A stretch of 32,000 bases of DNA from Candidatus Thorarchaeota archaeon (GCA_048882505.1 JBHLRO010000024.1:9860-41859); one strand, 5' to 3'. Shown: positions 18,993 to 31,590, numbered from the stretch's first letter. Notes: a model not told the origin generated them from the letters alone. Numbers and translations: made by a program.

Positions 18993-20225
18993 ATGGTTGG
19001 GTCTTCGATTGAATCTCTTATCGGGATTCGAGGATTCTCAACCCCAGCCATAATTGGCATGGGAGGGGTGATAAGGCAGCATTTTTCCGATTTTATAGTT
19101 CGAGAAATACTGCCTAATGGTTCCCCAATATCTGATGGATCAAAAATTGGATTTGGAGCCATTGGCGGGTTATATGTGCACTGTATTCTCCAAAAATCAG
19201 GATTAGATACCTTTACCGCCATTAGAAAGATCAGTAATTGTCTGAAAGTTTCTGAAGGAGATTTTGGATATGCTGGATTAAAAGATGCGGAAGCAGTTAC
19301 TTACCAAAGAATCTCCATTTGGAACATCCGGATTAATCGTGTAATCGCTATAGATTTACCTCAAATTAGGTTATTTAATCCAGTACGACAAAGATTTGCC
19401 GTTAAGATTGGGGATCTGATAGGGAACCATTTCGAAATAACCATACGAAAGATTCAGAGGAACTGGAATTCCCTTATGTGGGAGGAATTTATGAGATCCA
19501 TTTCATCGCGTGGTATATTGAATTATTTTATGGCCCAACGATTTGGATCCCGCCGACCTATACTTCATCTAATTGGACGTTTTCTGATTCAAAAGAGATA
19601 TACAGAGGTGATACGTACATATTTGGGGCATACCAGTTTATTAGAGAATCCAAAAATTACGGAATTACGAAAGAATTGGCTACAGAATTGGAAAGAAGGC
19701 GAAGAGATAAAAAATGCTTTTATATTCCCAAATTCATATCATATCGAAAATATTATGCTCAAAGGATTGAAAAGGGGGTTACCTGCAAGAAGTATCATCG
19801 AAAACCTTCCCCAAGCTTTTCTACGATTGGCGATTTCGGCGTACCAATCCTATCTCTATAATATAGTGCTTAGTTATCTAAATAAGTCTCATATCATTAC
19901 GAAAAACACTCTTATTCCTTTGATAGGTTATCAAAGCCCTAAACATAAACATTTATTCTCTGAGTTAGTATGGGATACCATGAATGAGATTTTAGAGGAT
20001 GAGGCAGTTGATTTTGATTGCTTTCGGCATGTAGAATTACCATGGCTGCGTTCAAAAGGATCAAAACGCAATGCGGTGGTATATCCCACCAATTTCGAAC
20101 GATTCAGGTTAGCTAGTTCAGCAATAAAAGTGGCGTTTTCCCTTCCTAAAGGATCCTATGGAACAGCAGTTATGAGAGAATTATTGAAAGACCAAAGGGA
20201 TCTTGAAATGGGTCATTCAGGGTAG
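18993..20225 (+). CDS. truD: tRNA pseudouridine(13) synthase TruD/Pus7
   Basis: DFIVRE, YAGLKDAEAVTYQ (catalytic Asp), GNHFEITIR, NYF..QRFG, FSLPKGSYGT.VMREL. Confidence 0.92.
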   Translation: MVGSSIESLIGIRGFSTPAIIGMGGVIRQHFSDFIVREILPNGSPISDGSKIGFGAIGGLYVHCILQKSGLDTFTAIRKISNCLKVSEGDFGYAGLKDAEAVTYQRISIWNIRINRVIAIDLPQIRLFNPVRQRFAVKIGDLIGNHFEITIRKIQRNWNSLMWEEFMRSISSRGILNYFMAQRFGSRRPILHLIGRFLIQKRYTEVIRTYLGHTSLLENPKITELRKNWLQNWKEGEEIKNAFIFPNSYHIENIMLKGLKRGLPARSIIENLPQAFLRLAISAYQSYLYNIVLSYLNKSHIITKNTLIPLIGYQSPKHKHLFSELVWDTMNEILEDEAVDFDCFRHVELPWLRSKGSKRNAVVYPTNFERFRLASSAIKVAFSLPKGSYGTAVMRELLKDQRDLEMGHSG

Positions 20226-20617
20226 AAAATATTTTCCTCTATTCTTCCACTAAGTGAGCCAGTTTTTATAAGGGTCTGAATAGCCTTTTCAACAGAGGTA
20301 GATGAAACTCCCTTTATTTCAATTTGATCTATTGACGTTGGTTCTCGGATTAAAGAAACAGCTTGGAGAAGAGTTTCCTTTTTTGACATCCCCGAACCTA
20401 TCTCATCGCCTTTGATTTTTTTCAATGAGGCCTTAATCGACGCGCCGCAAGTTGGGCACCGGAAACTTCCCATAATAGTCAGTGTCACGCGTCCTTCTTT
20501 ATCTGGCATTGGGCTGACTAGCTGCCAGGTCTTACTAGGTGGCGTCTCGACCGGATTGATTGTGGTATCACACTTTTTACAGACAATCGTTTTACTACGC
20601 TTTTTCTTTGGAGGCAT
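20213..20617 (-). CDS. Zn-ribbon Cren7-like domain fused to a C-terminal winged-helix-like domain
   Basis: CKKC...PSKTWQLVSPMPDKEGRVTLTIMGSFRCPTCG, then VEKAIQTLIKTGSLSGRIEE. ATG at 20617 follows GGGAGAAG. Confidence 0.6.
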   Translation of the reverse strand: MPPKKKRSKTIVCKKCDTTINPVETPPSKTWQLVSPMPDKEGRVTLTIMGSFRCPTCGASIKASLKKIKGDEIGSGMSKKETLLQAVSLIREPTSIDQIEIKGVSSTSVEKAIQTLIKTGSLSGRIEENIFYPE

Positions 20618-20651
20618 ATGAACTTCTCCCACAAAACACAAACAGAGCTAA

Positions 20652-21672: not shown

Positions 21673-23154
21673 TTAAGCCTTACGGACGATTTTCTTTGCT
21701 TCTAGTGCGTAATATAGCACTTCAGCCACGGATCGATCCTTGGTTCGGTTATCATGACGCAATCGCGCAACACGGTTAAAGCGGTTAATCTCTTCCTGAG
21801 CTCGTCGTGCCTCAATATGCAAACCCTCTTTTTGAGCTGTCTCTAGAACCTGCTCGATTTCGGAGAAGTCCGTTTCTCCCTCTAAGGTAATTTTCAGCAT
21901 GGCACTTACCATCGAAGCTCTTACATAGCCTCGTAAGTGATCGGTATCTTTTGTAATCTGAATTGCTTCTTCTATCAAATCCTGGGCAGTACTCAAAAAT
22001 GTAATATCAAAATAAATCCGATATCGATATATCGAAATGATTGCTAATGAAATTAGGGCGCCATAAAGATCAGAGATTCGTGCACGGTTCTTTCGACGTA
22101 AAATATAGTTATATAACTCTTCGGCTCGAGCCAAATTTAATTTAGTCAGCTCTAAATTTCCCTTGTCGCCTGCAATGGCCATGCGACCCCATGGTAGGGA
22201 TTTAAAGTCAAAAGATTGGCTCGATTCTATATTAGCTTGGCGAAGAATACGTTCCAGCTCCGATATCAGGATCGTTACTTGATCTAGATCTCCAAGTTCA
22301 AGGAAAAGGTCACAAAACCTTGATAGATGTTCGAAACGATCAGAAAGAGGGATTTTGTTTTCGTTTGCTTTTAGTAGAGTCTCAAAATCACCGTAATATT
22401 TGGCTAAAACGTCAATGGGTTTCTCACCCTCGTCTGAGAGTGATACAAGTTGTGATTCTACATCTGTGATTGAGACAAGAACTTCAAGGATTTTACGTTC
22501 ATTACCTAGATATTCAAAAATCTGCAAAGCAATCTCATAATTCCGACGAGCTTCTTTTAGATTGCCCAGACGTAGGAAGCACTCCCCGATTCCATGATGT
22601 ATCTGTGCAATATAATATTTGTCATTTTCTTCAATAGCGTACTCAAGTGCCTTTTGGAATTCTTTAAAGATCGAATCGAAGCGGGATTCTCCGCGTTGAA
22701 TCGCCCGTCTCCCATGTCGGAAAATAACATTCTTTAGAATCTTTTTCTTCTCTCCCTCCGTTAGCTGGGTTTCTGCGATTTCACGTGCCTCTTTAAAACT
22801 TGCCTGAGCTATTTCAGGAAGATTAGTTGATTGGGCAAGCTCGAGAAGAGCGTTAACAATTCCCTTGTGATAGTGTAACGCTCTTGCGTTATCTAGATTC
22901 CGATTCAAGTCGATCTGTTTATTACTGAAGTTCTTTCCTTCCCAAACGCGCTGAAACATTGCTAGATTCGTGAGGGCATCAATTTCACTAAAACGGTCTT
23001 GACTGTCTTCTGCTTGGCCTCTCACAAAATACCAAATCTCTGCAGCTCGGATTTCATTCCCATGAATCCACTCATTCCACGCCATATCAAGTTGTTCAGT
23101 TAACAGTTCTGACCTCGTGGTCGTGAATTCATTCGTGGCAGGCATATCTATCAT
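21673..23154 (-). CDS. TPR-repeat (alpha-solenoid) protein
   Basis: Repeats such as AQIHHGIGECFLRLGNLKEARRNYEIALQIF; ATG overlaps the tiaS stop (ATGA, 23151-23154). Confidence 0.75.
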   Translation of the reverse strand: MIDMPATNEFTTTRSELLTEQLDMAWNEWIHGNEIRAAEIWYFVRGQAEDSQDRFSEIDALTNLAMFQRVWEGKNFSNKQIDLNRNLDNARALHYHKGIVNALLELAQSTNLPEIAQASFKEAREIAETQLTEGEKKKILKNVIFRHGRRAIQRGESRFDSIFKEFQKALEYAIEENDKYYIAQIHHGIGECFLRLGNLKEARRNYEIALQIFEYLGNERKILEVLVSITDVESQLVSLSDEGEKPIDVLAKYYGDFETLLKANENKIPLSDRFEHLSRFCDLFLELGDLDQVTILISELERILRQANIESSQSFDFKSLPWGRMAIAGDKGNLELTKLNLARAEELYNYILRRKNRARISDLYGALISLAIISIYRYRIYFDITFLSTAQDLIEEAIQITKDTDHLRGYVRASMVSAMLKITLEGETDFSEIEQVLETAQKEGLHIEARRAQEEINRFNRVARLRHDNRTKDRSVAEVLYYALEAKKIVRKA

Positions 23155-24533
23155 CTGGGGATTAATCGCTCACGATTCCTTAAAAAGGCACTAAAGAGTT
23201 GGGAGAAACTCGTATCCGAGGAGAGGTGGAATTGGAGACGTCCGTCTCTGACAATCGGTTTAGTTAGATGTCTATGTGCACACACTGGAGGGATATACCT
23301 AACCCTGGCTCGAATTTTCCTATGTGATGGCAAGTAAATATATTCTTTCGTAGGCGTATCAAAGGAGCATCGTTTACACTTGAATCCCTGTTTACGGCCA
23401 GCAGATTTTAGAGTTATTCCACATTCGGGACATTTGGGAGTTTTTCTTTCATGTGAAGCTGTTAACTTGACAATTTCTATTTCTTCAAGGTTAATTGTCA
23501 TAGGGATATGATTAGAGGCTGGTCGTACTCCACCACTTACAATAATTTCGTCGTCTTCCTCTAATTCCCGAACTATCTTACGATATTGCTTAGTGGGTTC
23601 GTATGCAGCACAATCAATCAAAACATGACCCGAGCTTAGTTTAAAAATGACATGGCCACCCGGATAATCCTTTGGTTTGGTAGCTACGGTTCCTCTTACG
23701 CGTACCGAAAGATACGGTTCTAGTTCATTTCCTTTGAATTCCTTAGGAAAATGAACTTGGGTGTGTTGGTTGGTTCTAAAGATCATAGAAGTTTGAACAG
23801 CTTCTAAAACATTAATCCTTTTCCACATTTGGATTACTGATTCTGGGGTTTCACCCCTGATCCCGCAAAAAACAGGATCAGGACCATGTGGGGTGATCAT
23901 AACTTGTCGATTAATATAATCATAATTATTGAAGGTTAACGGCGTACTTTTGTCTGCTTCTATCACTGAATCTACATCGACCAGTCGTTTGGATTTTTTT
24001 TGATTGGGATGACGATAAACGATTAGTTCAAAGGTGTAATCAGGAGATAGATCGGCCCCAATAGCTGCAGCGGCGCCTATCAATCCTCTTCCCTTCTTTG
24101 GAATAAAATACCGAGAACTGGATATCCTTTCTAAAATTCCTGTTATTTGGTTGAGCGGAACCACCTGATAAAGAGCTTGGTGATAAAGATCTCTAAACGA
24201 TGCTGGAACGTTTCCATCAATTAAAATCAGGCCAGGGTCTGTGTTCGGGTCTTTTACATCTGCATGGTCCATAATGAGATTGGTAATCGTATTCCACAGT
24301 CTAATCATTTGTTTTTCCGATGTTGCAAAAGTAATGGCGACCGCTCCATTACCTCGAGTTTTATAAGGAATATTTGGATTTAATCGGACTAATTTTGGAA
24401 AATCTAAAAAGTGGACAGGGATAGAAAGCAATAGATCAACGATAAGGGTTCCGATGTAGGTTGTACACATACCATTCTGTGAATCGGTATCATCTATGCC
24501 GAGATGCCATGTATGAATGTAAGGATTATTCAA
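23151..24533 (-). CDS. tiaS: tRNA(Ile2) 2-agmatinylcytidine synthetase TiaS
   Basis: GIDDTDS..GMCTTY, PKLVRLNPNIPYKTRGNGAV, GRGLIGA, TPHGPDPVFCGIRG, AAYEPT OB fold, CPEC...CKRC Zn ribbon. TTG start after GGGAG. Confidence 0.96.
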   Translation of the reverse strand: MNNPYIHTWHLGIDDTDSQNGMCTTYIGTLIVDLLLSIPVHFLDFPKLVRLNPNIPYKTRGNGAVAITFATSEKQMIRLWNTITNLIMDHADVKDPNTDPGLILIDGNVPASFRDLYHQALYQVVPLNQITGILERISSSRYFIPKKGRGLIGAAAAIGADLSPDYTFELIVYRHPNQKKSKRLVDVDSVIEADKSTPLTFNNYDYINRQVMITPHGPDPVFCGIRGETPESVIQMWKRINVLEAVQTSMIFRTNQHTQVHFPKEFKGNELEPYLSVRVRGTVATKPKDYPGGHVIFKLSSGHVLIDCAAYEPTKQYRKIVRELEEDDEIIVSGGVRPASNHIPMTINLEEIEIVKLTASHERKTPKCPECGITLKSAGRKQGFKCKRCSFDTPTKEYIYLPSHRKIRARVRYIPPVCAHRHLTKPIVRDGRLQFHLSSDTSFSQLFSAFLRNRERLIPR

Positions 24534-24551
24534 TTATCTCCCTTCATCTCA

Positions 24552-25472
24552 TCAAACGAGTCGAGACAAAACACCAGAAACCAATAATGGCAATACCAAG
24601 GTTACATCGCCCATGATATCAATCCATTTAGCATCAACAGATACTTTCCCCCAAGAAATGGCCTCTCGCATGGAAGCTCCACTTACCCCGCCATGTTCCG
24701 GTCTATCCATTGTGATTTGGATGGCATAACTGAGTCCATTATGTAATTGGGAGCCATTCATAATGAAATGTTTTGGTACGCCACCACCCAAGATAAGGGC
24801 ACCCATTCGTTTGGTTTCATAGACAATCTGAGCAAATTCAGTATGGTCCTGGAGGACATCTATTATTAATGGCCTTGACTGAGAAAAAAGCCAGGACTGT
24901 ACCCCCAGTAAGGAGTCCGCAAAAGAGGGCGAAAAAATGGGTATGTTTTTAAGAAACGCTGATCGAATGATGGAGTTAGAATCTGAGATCAGTCGCCCGA
25001 GTTCATAAAGGAAGCTGCGTGTGCTCATCTTTTTATTTGGAACGGTTTCAAGCATTTGCTGTGCAAGAGTTTCAAATTCCGCAAAAGCCCTATATGGGAT
25101 TAATGTACTGAAAATCCTGCTAAATTCCATTTCATGAAGTTTTTCATCATCTATATATTCTGTTCCGTGAAAATGCGATCTGCCAGAACTTTCTAATAGA
25201 TCGTGACTCAAATTAGCTCCTGTGGTAACGATACAATCGACTATATCTTTCTCAATAAGATCTCGTATGATATTACGCATTCCTCCAGGAATTAACGCAC
25301 CAGCAAGACCAAGAAAAACAGTACAGTCTGAATCTCTAGTCATCTCTTCGAGGAGATCAGCAGCCAGGCCTATTTTGCGACAGGTAAATCCACCATCCTT
25401 CATAGAGGTCAATAGTTCGTTAACTGTCATGTTCGGATATACTTCGACCTGGTTCATTTTTTTAAAGTTCAA
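24552..25472 (-). CDS. dys: Deoxyhypusine synthase (DHS family)
   Basis: GGF, FLGLAGALIPGG, TTGANLSHD, GGGVPKH, SGA..REAISWGK (catalytic Lys). TTG start after AGGTGA. Confidence 0.93.
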   Translation of the reverse strand: MNFKKMNQVEVYPNMTVNELLTSMKDGGFTCRKIGLAADLLEEMTRDSDCTVFLGLAGALIPGGMRNIIRDLIEKDIVDCIVTTGANLSHDLLESSGRSHFHGTEYIDDEKLHEMEFSRIFSTLIPYRAFAEFETLAQQMLETVPNKKMSTRSFLYELGRLISDSNSIIRSAFLKNIPIFSPSFADSLLGVQSWLFSQSRPLIIDVLQDHTEFAQIVYETKRMGALILGGGVPKHFIMNGSQLHNGLSYAIQITMDRPEHGGVSGASMREAISWGKVSVDAKWIDIMGDVTLVLPLLVSGVLSRLV

Positions 25473-25487
25473 TGTGTATTCACCTAT

Positions 25488-26792
25488 TCAGGAATTTGAG
25501 GGGGTTCCATTTTTCAGATGAAAATAAACGTAGGGGCGATCTTCTAGACAATAGGTTGCATTAAATGACAAAGAATAGGCGCCTGCCTGAAGGAAGAGAA
25601 TCTGATCCCCTTCACGAATGGTATGTAGTGGTACAGTCTGTTTTGTGGGTGAATTATGGGGAAGATATTGGTCCATGGTGTCATTGGTCGACCCGTTGAT
25701 GCGATATACTGTTACAGGATCGTTTTCATTGGCTATTACATTGAGAATAGGAAATTGCCAGTTGATTGACACCGTGTCCAAAAGAAGATTGTAGAAACTT
25801 CCATCTACGAATGCAAGAGGTATTCCAGAGGGATCCTGCTTAAGTTTAACGATAGTACAGGCCAGAATACCTGCAGGTGCCGTCAAATATCTTCCAGATT
25901 CCGCGATGATTGTTATATTATGGAATTCGTCAGGGAGCTCCTCACTGATCGCCCTGCCAAACTGTTCCACAGAAGGGATAGAATCCTTCGCGCCGTAATC
26001 AACAGGAAATCCGCCGCCAATATCCAAAAGGGATAGGTCAACGTCATAAGCTTCCAAATGTCTAGTCAGTCTCACAAGTGCACGAAAACTACGTTTATAT
26101 AGAGCTACGTTAAGTAATTGGCTGCCTAAGTGCATATGGAGACCAACCAATTCTAACCATGGTGAATTGTTAAAGTATGAGATGATTGAACTTAGAGGAG
26201 ACGGAGTATCGAAATCGAGAGGTATGGGGACTCCAACTTTACTATATGGACCAGTAGAGCTGAAAACCGTTTCGTGAAACGCATGTAACGGGTTAACACG
26301 AAGTAATACACGCACAGGTGCTCTTTTTGATTTAGCAGCCTTTTCGATTCGTTTCATATCACTACGTGAGTCGACAGCAAAATAAGCAATATTATGATCC
26401 AAGGCAAATTCAATAGTTTTCTGGGGTTTTACGATATTTGTGTAGATGAATTTCTGTGGGTCTCCTCCAAGCTCTATGATGCGCCTCATTTCACCTAATG
26501 ATGTGACTTCAAAGTATATATTTTTCTTAACAAACGTTTGAACAACTTCGGGCTGAGGATTTGCCTTTATTGAGTAGGCTACCTGGAATGGGTTCTTTAA
26601 ATTCGAAACGAACGCAGAATTGAGTTTATCATACTGAAGAAGGAGTTGGCGTTCCGAGAATATGAATGATGGAGTTCCAATGTCATTAAGAAGGGCTTTA
26701 ATATCCAATCCATCAAAATATACCCCATCATTAATTCTTTCAAGAAGTAATAACTTGTCAACAAAGGTCGTAAGCATTTTCGCAGTCCACAA
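25488..26792 (-). CDS. Fold-type III PLP-dependent decarboxylase (Orn/DAP/Arg family); candidate arginine or ornithine decarboxylase
   Basis: AYSIKAN (PLP Lys), TSLGE, HMHLGSQ, DIGGGF, AESGRYL, GAY. Alternative ATG at 26777. Substrate inferred from context only. Confidence 0.85.
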   Translation of the reverse strand: MWTAKMLTTFVDKLLLLERINDGVYFDGLDIKALLNDIGTPSFIFSERQLLLQYDKLNSAFVSNLKNPFQVAYSIKANPQPEVVQTFVKKNIYFEVTSLGEMRRIIELGGDPQKFIYTNIVKPQKTIEFALDHNIAYFAVDSRSDMKRIEKAAKSKRAPVRVLLRVNPLHAFHETVFSSTGPYSKVGVPIPLDFDTPSPLSSIISYFNNSPWLELVGLHMHLGSQLLNVALYKRSFRALVRLTRHLEAYDVDLSLLDIGGGFPVDYGAKDSIPSVEQFGRAISEELPDEFHNITIIAESGRYLTAPAGILACTIVKLKQDPSGIPLAFVDGSFYNLLLDTVSINWQFPILNVIANENDPVTVYRINGSTNDTMDQYLPHNSPTKQTVPLHTIREGDQILFLQAGAYSLSFNATYCLEDRPYVYFHLKNGTPSNS

Positions 26793-26882
26793 CTTTTTTT
26801 TGAAAGAGTTTTTTTAACAAGCTGAAAGGAATCTAAATTCATCCTTGAGATCAAGAATCATCCTTAATCTGCGTGAGGTATT

Positions 26883-27812
26883 GTGAAAAATCTGGATTTT
26901 GTGCTCCACGAACCCGATATGTTGTGCGGAATCATAAAGCGTGAATGGAATGCAGATGATCCCAACTACCATTTGTTGGGCGTTCCTCTTGATATTTCTT
27001 CAACTTATCGTACTGGATCGCGTCACGGCCCTGAATATCTACGTCGTGTTTTTACCTCTGAAAATTTTGAATGTACGACCGAACAGGGAATCGATCTAAT
27101 CCAGCATTTTCGTATAAAAGATTGGGGAAACGTGGGAATTATTCCCACAGACATAGAAAAAAGCCTAAAATTCGTATCTGAAGGCATCCAGGATCTTCTT
27201 GATACCAAGCAGCCCTTCTTGATTGTTGGTGGGGATCACAGCATCACGATCGGGATTGGGGAGGCATTTGAGGCCTCAAAGTTCCCGTTTTACTCAATCT
27301 ACATCGATGCGCATCTTGATTTATATTTGGAGATGAAAGGATCTCCTCTTTCACACGCATGTTCGCTTAGGCGTCTGTCCGAAATGGAGTTTTTCCAGGG
27401 AGCAACGGTTCTGGGGTACCGTGATTTCACTTTGGCTCAACTTGAATACGCCAAAACAGCAGATATTACTCCTATTTCCCTTATTAAATTACTCCAGGAA
27501 GAGGATCTCTTCCAATATGGATACGAGTTAGCTCAATCATTGATTAGCAAAGAGAACAGAATCCACGTCTCTTTAGACTTGGATGTTTTGGATCCTAGTT
27601 ATGCACCAGGAGTGAATAATCCTGTGTCCGGTGGAATGGGGACACGACAACTGATCGAACTATTAACAGGCATTTTTCAGGGCTTAAGCAAGCCAAGAGC
27701 TGTCAGCTGGGATATTGTTGAGTTTAATCCGCTATATGATCTCTCCGAAATAACGGCCTTTACCGTTGTCAAGTTAATGATCGAAGGACTAGGGGCCCAG
27801 ATTAAGAAGTAG
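26883..27812 (+). CDS. speB: Agmatinase / ureohydrolase (arginase family)
   Basis: GVPLD..STYRTGSRHGP, GGDHSIT, DAHLD, SHA, SLDLDVLDPSYAPGV..PVSGG, DIVEFNP; full set of Mn ligands. Confidence 0.92.
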   Translation: MKNLDFVLHEPDMLCGIIKREWNADDPNYHLLGVPLDISSTYRTGSRHGPEYLRRVFTSENFECTTEQGIDLIQHFRIKDWGNVGIIPTDIEKSLKFVSEGIQDLLDTKQPFLIVGGDHSITIGIGEAFEASKFPFYSIYIDAHLDLYLEMKGSPLSHACSLRRLSEMEFFQGATVLGYRDFTLAQLEYAKTADITPISLIKLLQEEDLFQYGYELAQSLISKENRIHVSLDLDVLDPSYAPGVNNPVSGGMGTRQLIELLTGIFQGLSKPRAVSWDIVEFNPLYDLSEITAFTVVKLMIEGLGAQIKK

Positions 27813-28088
27813 GATGCAGCCATGCTACAACTGAAGCAAGGTTGTATTTGTACCCGTCCAAACCAGCATTTATTCGAGCATCGTGACTAACCAGTATGAT
27901 TATGACCTTCAATTGAATAAACATTCTCAAAACGGACTAATCAAAGATAAAATCATGGTATGACGTAATGAAATCAGGATTCCTGACAACAACAGCGGAA
28001 TAACTAATATTGGCGAACCAGCAATACTTAAATCAGTTATTAGTTAGGAAAATTGGAAATTACTCCTCCCTCCCTGGAACCCTGCATT

Positions 28089-28741
28089 ATGAAAACTCCC
28101 AAAACTGTTCAAATAAAACTGTTAAAATGGACTCTTATTGGTATCTGTGGAATCGTTGTTTTTGCTTATTCCGCGCTACTTCTTCCTTTTCTTCGCCAAA
28201 TCCACTTTTTTTTGACATTCAAGGGCCAGAGAAACTCTACAATGATCTGATTGTGTTGGGCTGGATACCAATTGCGTTCCTGATCACAGTAGGGTATTTT
28301 TATGTTTCCCATCTGGAGCATCTATTATGGACCATATGGGAGATTTTGTGGGGTTGTGCCCTTTATCTTACTTACAAAAACCGTAAGATTTGGAGCCTAA
28401 AAAGGCAATTCCTCAGTCATGTGTCCGTAGCCAGTTTCGCATTGATCCCTTTCATATTATGGAACGTGCTGGTAACTCCTGAAAAACCAGGTATACCCAT
28501 GGTTTCTGATATTCAAGTATTAGACCCATTCTATACCATCCAAGTTTCCTGGATAATTCCCTTATGGTTCGTTATCTGGTGTTATGGCTGGATCATGGAT
28601 GTCCCCCGAATTTCTATCAAACAGCAAAAATGGGACCTAATCCGTCTTATATGGTTATGTCTGTTTTTACTAATCCAATTCTATGTTATGTTTTTATTGG
28701 GAGAATATATCTGGTGGGTACCCTCGGGCCCAGTTATATGA
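28089..28741 (+). pseudogene. Hypothetical multi-TM membrane protein split by a frameshift at a T8 run
   Basis: ATG 28089 frame gives MKTPKTVQIKLLKWTLIGICGIVVFAYSALLLPFLRQIHFF; the long hydrophobic frame continues FFDIQGPEKLYNDL... to the stop at 28741. The frames cross at T8 (28206-28213). Could be a sequencing error. Confidence 0.5.
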
Positions 28742-28783
28742 CATTTCTCTTGGGGGAATATACCTGGAGGGTACCCTCGCCAG
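28691..28783 (+). repeat. Imperfect tandem duplication (53-bp period) of the 3' end of the membrane-protein gene
   Basis: 28691-28726 vs 28744-28779 are 31/36 identical, encoding FLLGEYIWWVPS and FLLGEYTWRVPS. Confidence 0.85.
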
Positions 28784-29021
28784 GATATTTTAAGATTCAA
28801 GAGAGGGGAGCCCAAATCCAAAAATAGTCTGGCATCACCATAACTAAGGCATTTTTATTCGATTTATGGAATTCGTTTCTATTTTGGGCTCGTTCCGTTG
28901 TTCTGACCTGATCAAAACCTCGATTCATGTGAATGAAACCATAGAAAACCTTAAAAACGGGGGTGGGTAGGCATATGGAATCGATTATGACCCATATTGT
29001 GTCATATGGAGATTAAAGTAG

Positions 29022-30248
29022 TTGGGACGAAAAAAGATCTCTTTAGTATTCATGGTGGCATTTAACATTCTTGTCTTGGGAGTTATGAGTATATCGACCA
29101 CCAGTTTGACTATTGGATATACGACGATGATCAACGGGCAGGAACTTTTGGTCATCGAAAACGGAACCCCAGAGGGAGAGAATGCCATCAATCTGTTAAA
29201 GGGAGGAAAGGCCCGGGCTGAGTCGTTCTCTGTGAATAAAACAAGTTTTATTGACAGTATTTCTCTCAATCTAGATCTATCAGGACCGGATGGTGTGGAT
29301 GCACCTACTGCACATATTCAGGTTTTTAATACCAATTCGTCTCTCCTGCCTGTCCGGCCAATAACCACGGAAGTAAATATGGTTTTAGTGAGTCCTGGTT
29401 TACAGAATTTTACCAATTTAAATTGGGTGGTTGATCCTCTAAACACCTATAATAACACTTTTTATCTCTCAGTATATGCTATTCATTCACAAAAGACAAT
29501 AACATGGCGATACGTTCTTGATAGTACCAATGGAGATCAGGCCGATGTTTATAGATGGGAGGCCCCCATCTGGGTTAAGGATGACAACGGAATCGGCGGT
29601 GACATTGATTACATTCTCCAGCTGGAAATAACAACACCTCCAGATCCTATAGTTAGCATTGTGTCACCGTTAGCGCAAGCGTACGGAACCAACACAATCA
29701 AAGTGGCTTTTTCAGGAAACTGTCCTCATTATTGGTACTATATTGAGGGTGTAGACAATCAGAATCAGACCTGGGTTGCAGACCTGGATCGTGTCTTAAC
29801 GGATGGGAGCTATACTCTACATGCTTATGGCAACAATTCCTTCGACACCATTTCAACAGTCTCGGTCATATTCACAGTTGATACCGTTGCCCCCGTTGTT
29901 GTTATCAAATCACCCATTGCTAAAACTTACAAAACAGATATTATCTCTATAAATCTCTCTGGTGATGCAGGTACTTATTGGTATTACATAGAAGGTATTG
30001 ACACAATCAATCAGACTTGGATAGAAAGCACAGATCGTGTTATCCCTGATGGAACTTACACCATGCACGCATATGGGAATGACTCTGCTGGAAATATCGG
30101 CCATTCAACTGCAGGCTTCATCATTGATACTTCTTCTACCACTGATACCTCTTCAGTAACAATCCCAGTTGGAACCTCTGGTTGGATCCTCCCTCTGGTA
30201 ATCGGTGCGCTCGTTACTCTGAAGCGTTCGATAAGGTCCAAGCGATGA
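29022..30248 (+). CDS. Cell-surface glycoprotein: signal peptide, unknown N-terminal domain, two Ig-like repeats, Thr/Ser linker, C-terminal anchor
   Basis: Basic + hydrophobic N-terminus; 10 N-x-S/T sequons by my count; C-terminus TSGWILPLVIGALVTLKRSIRSKR. Confidence 0.8.
   Translation: MGRKKISLVFMVAFNILVLGVMSISTTSLTIGYTTMINGQELLVIENGTPEGENAINLLKGGKARAESFSVNKTSFIDSISLNLDLSGPDGVDAPTAHIQVFNTNSSLLPVRPITTEVNMVLVSPGLQNFTNLNWVVDPLNTYNNTFYLSVYAIHSQKTITWRYVLDSTNGDQADVYRWEAPIWVKDDNGIGGDIDYILQLEITTPPDPIVSIVSPLAQAYGTNTIKVAFSGNCPHYWYYIEGVDNQNQTWVADLDRVLTDGSYTLHAYGNNSFDTISTVSVIFTVDTVAPVVVIKSPIAKTYKTDIISINLSGDAGTYWYYIEGIDTINQTWIESTDRVIPDGTYTMHAYGNDSAGNIGHSTAGFIIDTSSTTDTSSVTIPVGTSGWILPLVIGALVTLKRSIRSKR
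29646..30128 (+). repeat. Two intragenic repeats with 82-codon (246-bp) period, Ig-like
   Basis: P.V.I.SP.A..Y.T..I....SG....YWYYIEG.D..NQTW....DRV..DG.YT.HAYGN.S...I......F..D occurs twice. Confidence 0.9.
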
Positions 30249-30335
30249 TCTGCCTTCTTACGGAAGATAGGTAAATCTGAGTCGATTTATTTTCCTTTGA
30301 TTCAATAGGCATAACATGGGATGTCGTAAATTCCC

Positions 30336-31247
30336 CTATTCTTGAATCGCCTGAACGGCCTTGAAAATACCATCACACAATGTCCTATCTTTTCTCTGTC
30401 TTCGTCCTAAGAACTGTTTGATATCCTCTGGTGTTTTGATTGTAGCTTCTGCTATGGCTATTAGTTTCTTCTTGTCAAGAATCATAAATGGTGCCCGATC
30501 TTGTCTCCGTGCTTCCACGTCTCTCCAAGAATAGAGTGCTTTCAGGACTTTTCTCGAGTAAAACGATAGTTCAGACGCCCCTCCAATTTTGATGAAATTC
30601 TCTGGATTGAACTGTTTTTCCTTGGGCATAATACGTTCTAATCGGCTGCATTTTTCCTTAAATTCCTCATAACGCGGTAATTTTTCTAGGAACAGCTCTC
30701 GTAATTCGATTAAGTATCGGACATCAGTTGCAGCATACGCTATCCACTCTTTAGGTAATGGTCGTTTGGCCCAATCGACTTTATTCAATTTTTTTGTGTG
30801 CTCTACTTGTAATACCTGTTTTAGGAGGTTGTCAAGCCCGAGCTTTCTAAATCCGAGGTGTTGCCCCGCTATGGATGTATCAAAGATGCTTCTTGGTGCG
30901 ATGGAAAGGGTCTTCTTGAGAAGCGTAATATCATACGTTGGATCGTGCATGACTTTTTCGATTGCAGGATCTTCCAAGATCTCTTTAACAGGTGAAATAT
31001 CCAATCCTGCCAGAGGATCAATGAGGTATATATCCGCTGGAGTTCCAATCTGAATTAGACAAATTTTTTCATAATATCGGTGAAAAGAATCGGCCTCCAG
31101 ATCAACCCCGATAATACGGCCGCCCCTTATTTCGTCGATGACCTGATTATAGTCCTCTGGTCTGTGGATATATTTTACACTTTTTCTCTCACATTTTTGT
31201 CGAATTTCGTCCCCTCTTAAGGGTAGAACATCAAAATTATTACTCAT
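30336..31247 (-). CDS. rnd: Ribonuclease D family 3'-5' exoribonuclease (DEDDy + HRDC)
   Basis: VDLEADS...ICLIQI, KVMHD..YD, FDT..A...LG, DW.KRPL...YAATDV; HRDC LYSWRD.EARRQDRAPFMIL. ATG at 31247 (in-frame TTG at 31262). Confidence 0.92.
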   Translation of the reverse strand: MSNNFDVLPLRGDEIRQKCERKSVKYIHRPEDYNQVIDEIRGGRIIGVDLEADSFHRYYEKICLIQIGTPADIYLIDPLAGLDISPVKEILEDPAIEKVMHDPTYDITLLKKTLSIAPRSIFDTSIAGQHLGFRKLGLDNLLKQVLQVEHTKKLNKVDWAKRPLPKEWIAYAATDVRYLIELRELFLEKLPRYEEFKEKCSRLERIMPKEKQFNPENFIKIGGASELSFYSRKVLKALYSWRDVEARRQDRAPFMILDKKKLIAIAEATIKTPEDIKQFLGRRQRKDRTLCDGIFKAVQAIQE

Positions 31248-31590
31248 TTGTAAGTTCCCCAATACAAATTAAACGTGATCATCTGCCTTTTTAAGAAATT
31301 AGGCTTCGCCAGGTGTTGAAACTTGATAATCTATATTGTAATTAAATGATCTTGGAGCAAATTAATAAAAAAAACTTAGATTCGGGCTATACATCTTTTA
31401 TGTATCACACATCTTCTTTAATTACTCATAATACCCTAATTATAGTAATTTATGGTGCGATACAAAAAGTGGGTATGAATAGAAATGAAGCAAAATGCCA
31501 ACCAAGAATTCATCTGTTCTTTTGGTTGGAGAAGATAGGGAACCGATTTGGTTATATTTCTAAATTGATTGATGTATGAAGGTGAATAGA

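Follow-up and report, generated by a model that had tools for sequence, protein, structure and literature searches.

TiaS, the tRNA(Ile2) 2-agmatinylcytidine synthetase, uses agmatine and ATP to form agmatidine at C34 of tRNA-Ile2, an activity which is established for the family. In Thermococcus and Thermus, agmatine is converted via N1-aminopropylagmatine to spermidine, the SpeB homolog acting after aminopropylation. Among archaeal deoxyhypusine synthases (DHS), those of Sulfolobus and Thermococcus accept spermidine in vitro. Gene clusters in which an arginine decarboxylase (ADC) gene is combined with speY and speB, and which lead to homospermidine via N1,N9-bis(guanidino)homospermidine, were described by Li et al. 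2023 (PMC10407285) and Li et al. 2026 (PMC13625781) and are known from many bacteria as well as from marine groups II and III (MGII/III) and DPANN. According to Prunetti et al. 2016 (PMC5178350), the genes for agmatinase, DHS and aIF5A are physically linked in 39% of the archaeal genomes included in STRING. Here we describe a locus at positions 21673-27812 of a 32,000-nucleotide stretch of archaeal DNA (the window, JBHLRO010000024.1:9860-41859, in our numbering G000:C24:9860-41859), in which the genes for a LysA-derived fold-III decarboxylase dependent on pyridoxal 5'-phosphate (PLP), a DHS and TiaS follow each other on the minus strand and face a gene for a diverged agmatinase-like ureohydrolase. 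The genome of the window (G000) comprises 4.3 Mb in 83 contigs and is 94.6% complete; the nearest protein relatives of the window genes are named Heimdallarchaeota/Hodarchaeales.

We read the locus as a lineage-specific agmatine module that is embedded in translation and transcription genes, a reading which comprises the following steps and to which we assign a probability of about 45%. The decarboxylase, having lost the recognition of diaminopimelate (DAP), would most likely convert arginine to agmatine, one share of which would be used with ATP by TiaS for agmatidine formation at C34 of tRNA-Ile2. A second share would provide the aminobutyl donor with which DHS modifies Lys38 of the unlinked aIF5A. 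For this, a BpsA-like aminopropyltransferase fused to S-adenosylmethionine decarboxylase (AdoMetDC) may aminopropylate agmatine to N1-aminopropylagmatine, the likeliest substrate of the ureohydrolase, and removal of the amidino group by the latter would give spermidine for a conventional spermidine-dependent DHS.

Similar to the ADC-speY-speB clusters, in which the ADC is of variable fold, the locus combines a decarboxylase gene with DHS-family and agmatinase-family genes, and the linked ureohydrolase is diverged from agmatinase. Several features set it apart from those clusters: its DHS, the only one of the organism, passes the DHS model while failing that for SpeY; its decarboxylase stems from LysA and carries Asn where the motif has Cys; the operon includes TiaS; the host belongs to the Heimdallarchaeia/Hodarchaeales; and the genome additionally encodes a canonical agmatinase and a fusion of AdoMetDC with an aminopropyltransferase. 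With the aIF5A-agmatinase-DHS clusters of Euryarchaeota and the Haloferax volcanii model, the locus shares an agmatinase-like gene linked to DHS and the question whether agmatine or spermidine is the donor; aIF5A is unlinked here, the Haloferax ADC is the pyruvoyl enzyme PdaD encoded elsewhere, and haloarchaea lack the AdoMetDC which G000 possesses. The Thermococcus/Thermus route resembles the proposed one in its entry via agmatine and in the action of a SpeB homolog after aminopropylation, yielding spermidine for DHS, but here no SpeE-family transferase is present, which leaves a BpsA_C domain joined to AdoMetDC as the sole candidate. Both the ADC-DHS/SpeY-SpeB and the aIF5A-agmatinase-DHS arrangements are already published; new are the LysA-derived decarboxylase without the motif Cys, the inclusion of TiaS in the operon, and the Heimdallarchaeial setting with its natural presence/absence variants.

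Assignment of the decarboxylase

The decarboxylase gene (25488..26777, minus strand) encodes a polypeptide of 429 amino acids with matches to PF02784 (144.2 bits) and PF00278 (25.1 bits); its AF2 model has a pLDDT (predicted local distance difference test) of 84.5. Residues K71 (the PLP-binding Lys, codon 26565-26567), H214/H216 (motif HxHxGSQ), G254-256 (GGG) and E293/R296 (ExGR) are invariant in the clade to which it belongs. The top matches, both in sequence and in structure, are LysA and DokD, the D-ornithine/D-lysine decarboxylase of Salmonella, which have the fold and PLP motifs in common with it, but the protein scores below the cut-offs for both (210.5 vs 297.9 with the LysA model TIGR01048). 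A residue alignment which took in four solved DAP decarboxylases, E. coli LysA and about 70 bacterial LysA proteins showed that the clade reads (D/N)GSFYNT(L/I)PD and GS(S/T)NDTLD where the DAP decarboxylases have DAGMNxLxRPALY and GPxCExxD. In the decarboxylase the DAP-binding RP..Y is thereby changed to L-D..S and C-E to N-D, whereas both are kept in 70 of 72 bacterial LysA sequences, in E. coli LysA and in the second Nitrosopumilales copy. DapA and DapF (PF00701, PF01678) were not found in the genome, and DapF was found in none of the 83 genomes of the same class that were searched. An earlier description of this DNA, here called the sequence-only reading, had proposed an ADC and named a DAP-specific enzyme as the outcome that would speak against it; the LysA score, the loss of RP..Y and C-E and the absence of DapA/DapF rule out a DAP decarboxylase. 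LysW (TIGR01206) was also not found in the genome; with neither DapA/DapF nor LysW detected, the organism may be a lysine auxotroph or use another pathway. Another LysA-like group, with the motifs GPLCLPVD and D(I/V)GAN..P(M/L)RY, occurs in genomes of family f4 (L116-L120), where it coexists with PdaD in genomes that have no DapF.

The protein likewise fails the SpeA models NF003763 and TIGR01273 (76 bits vs 369/624), and its 429 residues do not correspond to the SpeA architecture of ca. 630 amino acids. In a SpeA-rooted tree, the decarboxylases of the family that includes the window genome (f1, 22 genomes, Heimdallarchaeia/Hodarchaeales) form a clade (100) which is sister to a Heimdallarchaeial clade from the sister family f7 (95); neither of the two groups with true LysA or with a Nitrososphaerota clade that has C-D. 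Neofunctionalised ADCs of the alanine racemase (AR) fold, such as those of Rhodophila globiformis, Rhodothalassium salexigens and Ca. Fonsibacter and the chlorella virus ADC (2nv9), are comparable since they too are fold-III proteins annotated for another substrate and located beside speB/speY. These enzymes derive from ornithine decarboxylase (ODC) and have C-D, whereas the decarboxylase described here branches with LysA-like enzymes and has N-D. AR-fold ODC homologs located beside speY/speB were shown experimentally to be ADCs (Li et al. 2026, PMC13625781).

On the basis of context and elimination, we consider it somewhat probable that the protein is an ADC which converts L-arginine to agmatine. 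It is the sole PF02784/fold-III gene product of the genome. PdaD, for which the sequence-only reading had suggested a search, was not found in G000, nor was a separate canonical ADC; the search of the 94.6%-complete genome also covered SpeA, an ADC of the OKR_DC_1/aspartate aminotransferase (AAT) fold and a second AdoMet_dc paralog, none of which was detected. At the same time, the genome encodes TiaS along with three enzymes resembling agmatinase, and each of these depends on a substrate derived from agmatine. Because no other ADC of a known type is encoded while users of agmatine are present, an ADC is the best reading of the protein. The Asp of the C-D pair of ODC and SpeA, a known ornithine-binding residue which contacts the distal cation of the substrate (PMC3543441), is retained beside the motif position. 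Furthermore, PdaD is present in most other families of the class and absent from exactly f1 and f7, the families with the decarboxylase clade; in Geothermarchaeota a related enzyme is the sole fold-III gene product and PdaD is absent as well.

Active-site residues

The Cys of the active-site motif (Cys360 in ODC, Cys387 in DokD) corresponds to Asn365 (codon 25683-25685) in all f1 copies and to N/T/S/A across the clade, so that the Cys-to-Asn exchange noted in the sequence-only reading was right and the Cys is missing clade-wide. In a comparison of the C-terminal 120 residues with the PDB, query residues 13-115 aligned to DokD 345-445, a range-level match only, which is consistent with Asn365 corresponding to Cys387. 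Where the motif Cys is present, the 'YN/HN' position, nine residues past GAY, is occupied by Asn (70 of 72 LysA, 8 of 8 SpeA and 3 of 3 Geothermarchaeota sequences). The decarboxylases of f1 (12 of 12) and most of those of f7 (7 of 9) have Asn, Thr or Ala at the motif and Cys at the second position, which is Cys410 (codon 25548-25550) in the window protein. This pattern in the alignment suggests that Cys410 may be a relocated proton donor.

The same position bears on a different type of chemistry. According to its PDB title, the C387S variant of DokD was crystallised with pyridoxamine 5'-phosphate (PMP) and 4-guanidinobutanal, and proton-donor substitutions make aldehyde synthases from fold-I decarboxylases (PMC7497351). 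With the exchange fixed in f1 and the gene adjoining that for DHS, the enzyme could carry out decarboxylation-dependent deamination to 4-guanidinobutanal or 4-aminobutanal, which DHS would couple reductively to aIF5A, with the ureohydrolase trimming the product. We give this scheme hardly any credence: the cofactor is inactivated by transamination and would have to be recycled, Cys410 may serve as proton donor in f1, the use of a free aldehyde by DHS is without precedent, and TiaS requires agmatine itself.

Conservation and history of the cluster

Each of the four proteins was searched against the 83 genomes of the class, and 20 loci were compared. The block is syntenic in the 21 other f1 genomes, where the order is TruD, a small Zn-ribbon protein, an EMC3-like protein, a tetratricopeptide repeat (TPR) protein in part of the loci, TiaS, DHS, the decarboxylase in part of the loci, and then, in divergent orientation, the ureohydrolase followed by an aminotransferase. 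This recurrence in 21 f1 genomes besides G000 takes the cluster beyond chance. The genes for DHS and ureohydrolase face each other in all 22 f1 genomes, with a spacer of 92-192 nt in the relatives; the distance from DHS to the following TiaS ranges from -8 to 21 nt (16 loci), and in 9 of 20 related loci either TiaS or DHS is followed by a TPR gene. The decarboxylase gene occupies the identical slot between DHS and ureohydrolase in half of the family (11/22). Its tree is congruent with that of the flanking genes, and it looks ancestral in f1 and vertically inherited, with two losses, which affected a clade of nine genomes and, separately, G063. The TiaS-DHS/ureohydrolase core is old within f1; the decarboxylase belonged to the arrangement ancestrally but is dispensable. 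The four genes are unlinked outside f1, and on other metagenomic contigs genes of the decarboxylase clade occur without these partners. The conservation across Asgards which had been considered in the sequence-only reading was not found; the cluster is confined to this one family. A search for related loci with the clade alignment was dominated by bacterial LysA; about 7 archaeal loci were useful, and the bacterial matches were kept as LysA controls.

Within f1, eight genomes have only the decarboxylase, three combine it with a further fold-III gene, which is SpeA in G048 and G050 and a distinct LysA-like gene in G061, two have only SpeA and nine have neither, a tally by which a complementary distribution of ADC types was rejected. 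Canonical SpeA, passing NF003763 with 386-389 bits, is present in four relatives. The tandems of SpeA and a LysA-like gene without the motif Cys in f7 (L011:3831-7723, L015:7942-11398 and L123:2994-6372) lie downstream of dCache/TPR/VWA sensor-like genes.

Several observations weigh against an agmatine module fed by this decarboxylase. The substrate assignments derive from context and elimination. Nine f1 genomes, one of them closed and several 94-99% complete, keep TiaS without any recognised ADC (G051, G057, G058, G059, G062, G063, G065, G067 and G068), so agmatine can come from elsewhere, either from an unknown ADC or by uptake. SpeA coexists with the decarboxylase in G048 and G050, and the location of f7 SpeA in tandem with a decarboxylase homolog hints that the substrate of the decarboxylase may differ from arginine. 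With Asn in place of Cys and the DokD C387S entry in mind, plain decarboxylation is not assured, and Cys occurs at neither position in 7 of about 19 clade representatives drawn from a library of 1.8 billion proteins. The decarboxylase-DHS gap is as short as 15 nt only in G000 and its nearest relative and measures 44-190 nt elsewhere. Finally, the neighborhood is rich in translation genes, so that the adjacency of TiaS and DHS need not reflect a shared metabolite.

Some of these findings would fit a decarboxylase that acts on L- or D-ornithine or lysine, which would yield putrescine or cadaverine, or on a carboxy-polyamine, for instance carboxyaminopropylagmatine, with agmatine supplied from another source. 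Nine relatives cope without a known ADC, SpeA accompanies the decarboxylase or its homolog in f7, G048 and G050, the top structural matches are D-ornithine/D-lysine decarboxylase structures, the acidic residues at the distal site suit any cationic side chain, and a saccharopine-dehydrogenase-like gene lies beside another ureohydrolase gene in the genome. We nevertheless find such an activity distinctly unlikely, as G000 has no alternative agmatine maker, the saccharopine-dehydrogenase-like gene does not co-vary with the decarboxylase, the score with the nspC model is just 23 bits, and a site between DHS/TiaS and an agmatinase-like gene best fits agmatine. The saccharopine-dehydrogenase-like gene (product of 407 amino acids, weakly similar to carboxynorspermidine synthase, orthologs patchy in f1) overlaps with the arginase-family gene (371 amino acids) at L004:252-2568 (G000:C17), and the pair may constitute a further module for polyamines derived from agmatine or putrescine. 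A link to a carboxyaminopropylagmatine-type route was rejected because of the lack of co-variation, orthologs being present in G051 and G063, which have no decarboxylase, and absent from seven decarboxylase-bearing genomes. In G058 alone, an extra AdoMet_dc paralog of 124 amino acids is encoded beside a DUF3326 gene (L115:1469-3079).

The surroundings also raise the question whether the genes are merely neighbors in a housekeeping translation block, with no metabolic coupling and with the decarboxylase as an accessory or decaying insert. The flanking genes encode TruD, L11, L1, eIF6, L10, Spt5, RpoB and FtsY, the decarboxylase was lost twice, its relatives elsewhere are solitary, and aIF5A is distant. 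Yet the decarboxylase retains all PLP motifs and follows the same tree as its neighbors, the gene found most constantly with DHS is that of the ureohydrolase, which does not belong to the translation genes, and analogous ADC/DHS/ureohydrolase linkages recur in unrelated lineages, which makes mere proximity very improbable.

Agmatine feeding by the decarboxylase is the best reading because the enzyme is not DAP-specific, is the sole fold-III protein of the genome and is fixed between DHS and ureohydrolase in 11 genomes. Of the proposal in the sequence-only reading that a PLP-dependent ADC supplies both translation modifications, the part which concerns the enzyme is supported by these features, whereas half of f1 does without the decarboxylase and an AdoMetDC route is available for the DHS branch.

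DHS, TiaS and aIF5A

The DHS gene (24552..25472, minus strand; PF01916, 324 bits) is single-copy in the genome. Its product passes TIGR00321 (307 vs a cut-off of 304.25) and fails the SpeY-type model NF002699 (203.4 vs 500). The catalytic Lys276 lies within EAISWGK, and the nearest solved relatives are archaeal DHSs, 8put being the best. The residues corresponding to D243 and D316 of human DHS are Val, as had been noted earlier; since the nearest solved archaeal DHSs (8put and 7cmc) also lack one or both acids, this is not diagnostic and an argument from the substrate pocket was rejected. The TiaS gene (23151..24533, minus strand) encodes all four Pfam domains of the family (TiaS_TCKD, TiaS_FLD, OB and Zn_ribbon_TiaS) above their cut-offs; with the equivalog model NF040849 the protein scores 405 bits, below the cut-off of 600. 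The gene for aIF5A is present in the genome at L009:25-462 and unlinked to the cluster (in a closed relative the distance is ca. 400 kb), and the loop SKPGK38HG with the target Lys38 is invariant in 20 genomes.

The ureohydrolase and other polyamine genes

The ureohydrolase (26883..27812, plus strand) belongs to the arginase family (PF00491, 195 bits). The Mn ligands H119, D142, H144, D146, D232 and D234 are invariant, as are the motifs GGDH, DAHLD and SVDLDVLDP in 19 orthologs. The protein fails the agmatinase model TIGR01230 (155.1 vs 174.3), which is passed with 178.8 bits by a separate canonical agmatinase (L003:1435-2376, G000:C29) whose gene adjoins that of a TPR protein. With a canonical agmatinase encoded elsewhere, the DHS-linked paralog appears to be specialised. 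Its clade is restricted to Hodarchaeales at an identity of at least 53%, with at most 37% identity to generic agmatinases. A predicted complex of the ureohydrolase (A2) with aIF5A (A3) scored 0.06, which is evidence neither way. In total, the genome has five arginase-family matches, one of which is an arginase-like gene beside an arginine-deiminase-like gene (L006:1498-3297, G000:C9).

The only aminopropyltransferase and the only AdoMetDC of the genome are combined in a BpsA_C-AdoMetDC fusion protein of 464 amino acids (L002:445-1839, G000:C4:81488-82882), which is present in 20 of 22 f1 genomes. The AdoMetDC part is of class 1b, scores above the TIGR03330 cut-off and keeps ESH..HTWPE. SpeE was not found in the genome, and a literature search yielded no description of such a fusion. 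The observation in the sequence-only reading that spermidine synthase and AdoMetDC are missing thus holds for the window and does not extend to the genome. The fusion makes a spermidine-type route available, so that an agmatine-dependent DHS is not implied. Given this fusion and the separate canonical agmatinase, formation of spermidine via N1-aminopropylagmatine is as plausible as an agmatine-dependent DHS. The spermidine route is also favored by the DHS passing its own model and failing that for SpeY, and by its similarity to solved archaeal DHSs, a group in which the Sulfolobus and Thermococcus enzymes use spermidine.

The alternative is a SpeY-like, agmatine-dependent DHS which would oxidise agmatine and transfer a 4-guanidinobutyl group to Lys38 of aIF5A or to a second agmatine (giving G44G), the ureohydrolase then producing deoxyhypusine or homospermidine with no need for spermidine. 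The DHS/ureohydrolase pair is found in 22 of 22 genomes with the ADC candidate exactly in between, the linked paralog scores below the agmatinase cut-off while a canonical agmatinase is encoded elsewhere, and tight coupling of DHS to TiaS would unite two possible users of agmatine. The arrangement also mirrors the speY+duh modules and the ADC-speY-speB clusters of bacteria, MGII and DPANN (PMC10407285, PMC13625781), and the same steps appear in model 1d for Haloferax (PMC5178350). The Haloferax route, which the sequence-only reading had taken as reported, was indeed proposed in that study, but as a model that was not demonstrated. Against an agmatine-dependent DHS stand the score of 203 vs 500 with the SpeY model, the DHS model being passed; the canonical agmatinase, which would drain agmatine and is deemed incompatible with an efficient SpeY route by Li et al. 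(PMC13625781); and the conserved AdoMetDC-aminopropyltransferase fusion. The Val residues at the D243/D316 positions lend no support, as they are shared in kind by 8put and 7cmc. We regard this mechanism as possible but unlikely, and action of the ureohydrolase on N1-aminopropylagmatine is slightly favored over a role as partner of a SpeY-type enzyme (on G44G or guanidinobutyl-aIF5A), for which the Haloferax model and the diagmatine pathway of bacteria are the parallels.

Gene calls and surroundings

Direct reading of the junctions bore out the co-orientation of the decarboxylase, DHS and TiaS genes with gaps of 15 and 18 nt. The decarboxylase stop codon TGA (25488-25490) is followed by 15 nt containing a GGTGA Shine-Dalgarno-like motif and by the TTG start of DHS at 25472; the DHS stop codon (24552-24554) is followed by 18 nt and the TTG start of TiaS at 24533, the sole start candidate upstream of the conserved WHLGIDDTD. 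The minus-strand chain ends with a gene for a TPR protein of 493 amino acids (21673..23154; PF13424, 28.8 bits, just below the cut-off of 30.1), the start of which shares 4 nt with the TiaS stop and which was omitted from the sequence-only reading. On the other side, the open reading frame of the decarboxylase extends to a TTG at 26792, from which the previously given spacer of 90 bp is obtained, but homologs start at the ATG (MLTTF...), which gives 105 nt. This A/T-rich divergent intergenic region (26778..26882), read directly from the sequence, presumably holds both promoters; a sigma-70 promoter scan of it was set aside since the model is inapplicable to archaea. The ureohydrolase starts with GTG, preceded by GAGGT 4 nt upstream, and GTG or TTG is found at the same position in 19 orthologs.

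The other window genes encode the DNA polymerase small subunit, STT3, RpoB, Spt5, L10, FtsY, eIF6, L1, L11 and TruD, and no polyamine gene is found among the remaining genes of the window. Between the ureohydrolase and the aminotransferase, three genes are located at 28010-31262; their products are a protein of 243 amino acids that belongs to no known family, another with a Big_13 domain, and an RNase D-like exonuclease of the DEDD type which carries an HRDC domain. In 19 relatives the aminotransferase directly follows the ureohydrolase, and in the nearest relative the RNase D gene alone lies in between. A 142-aa Zn-ribbon protein (20213-20641), labelled Cren7-like in the earlier description, is located at the same site in the block throughout the family with 63-73% identity and has no significant match to a Pfam family.

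Implications

If the decarboxylase is an ADC, it represents a further independent origin of this activity, from the LysA branch. The occurrence of Asn at the Cys position together with Cys at the usual Asn position bears on the control of protonation versus transamination in fold-III enzymes. Family f1 provides a compact test set, with one DHS, one aIF5A, a DHS-linked ureohydrolase which is distinct from the canonical agmatinase, and genomes with and without the decarboxylase. Heimdallarchaeia are placed nearest to eukaryotes in some phylogenies, and eIF5A hypusination is, to our knowledge, the single essential role of spermidine across all eukaryotes. Li et al. 2026 ask whether archaea possess agmatine-dependent as well as spermidine-dependent DHS (PMC13625781). 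The complete arrangement which would speak to this, a sole DHS that is agmatine-dependent, served by a dedicated ureohydrolase that is blind to agmatine and supplied by a LysA-derived ADC without the motif Cys, is unlikely in our estimate; if true, it would settle whether archaea have an agmatine-dependent DHS and would mean that the spermidine dependence of hypusination arose later.

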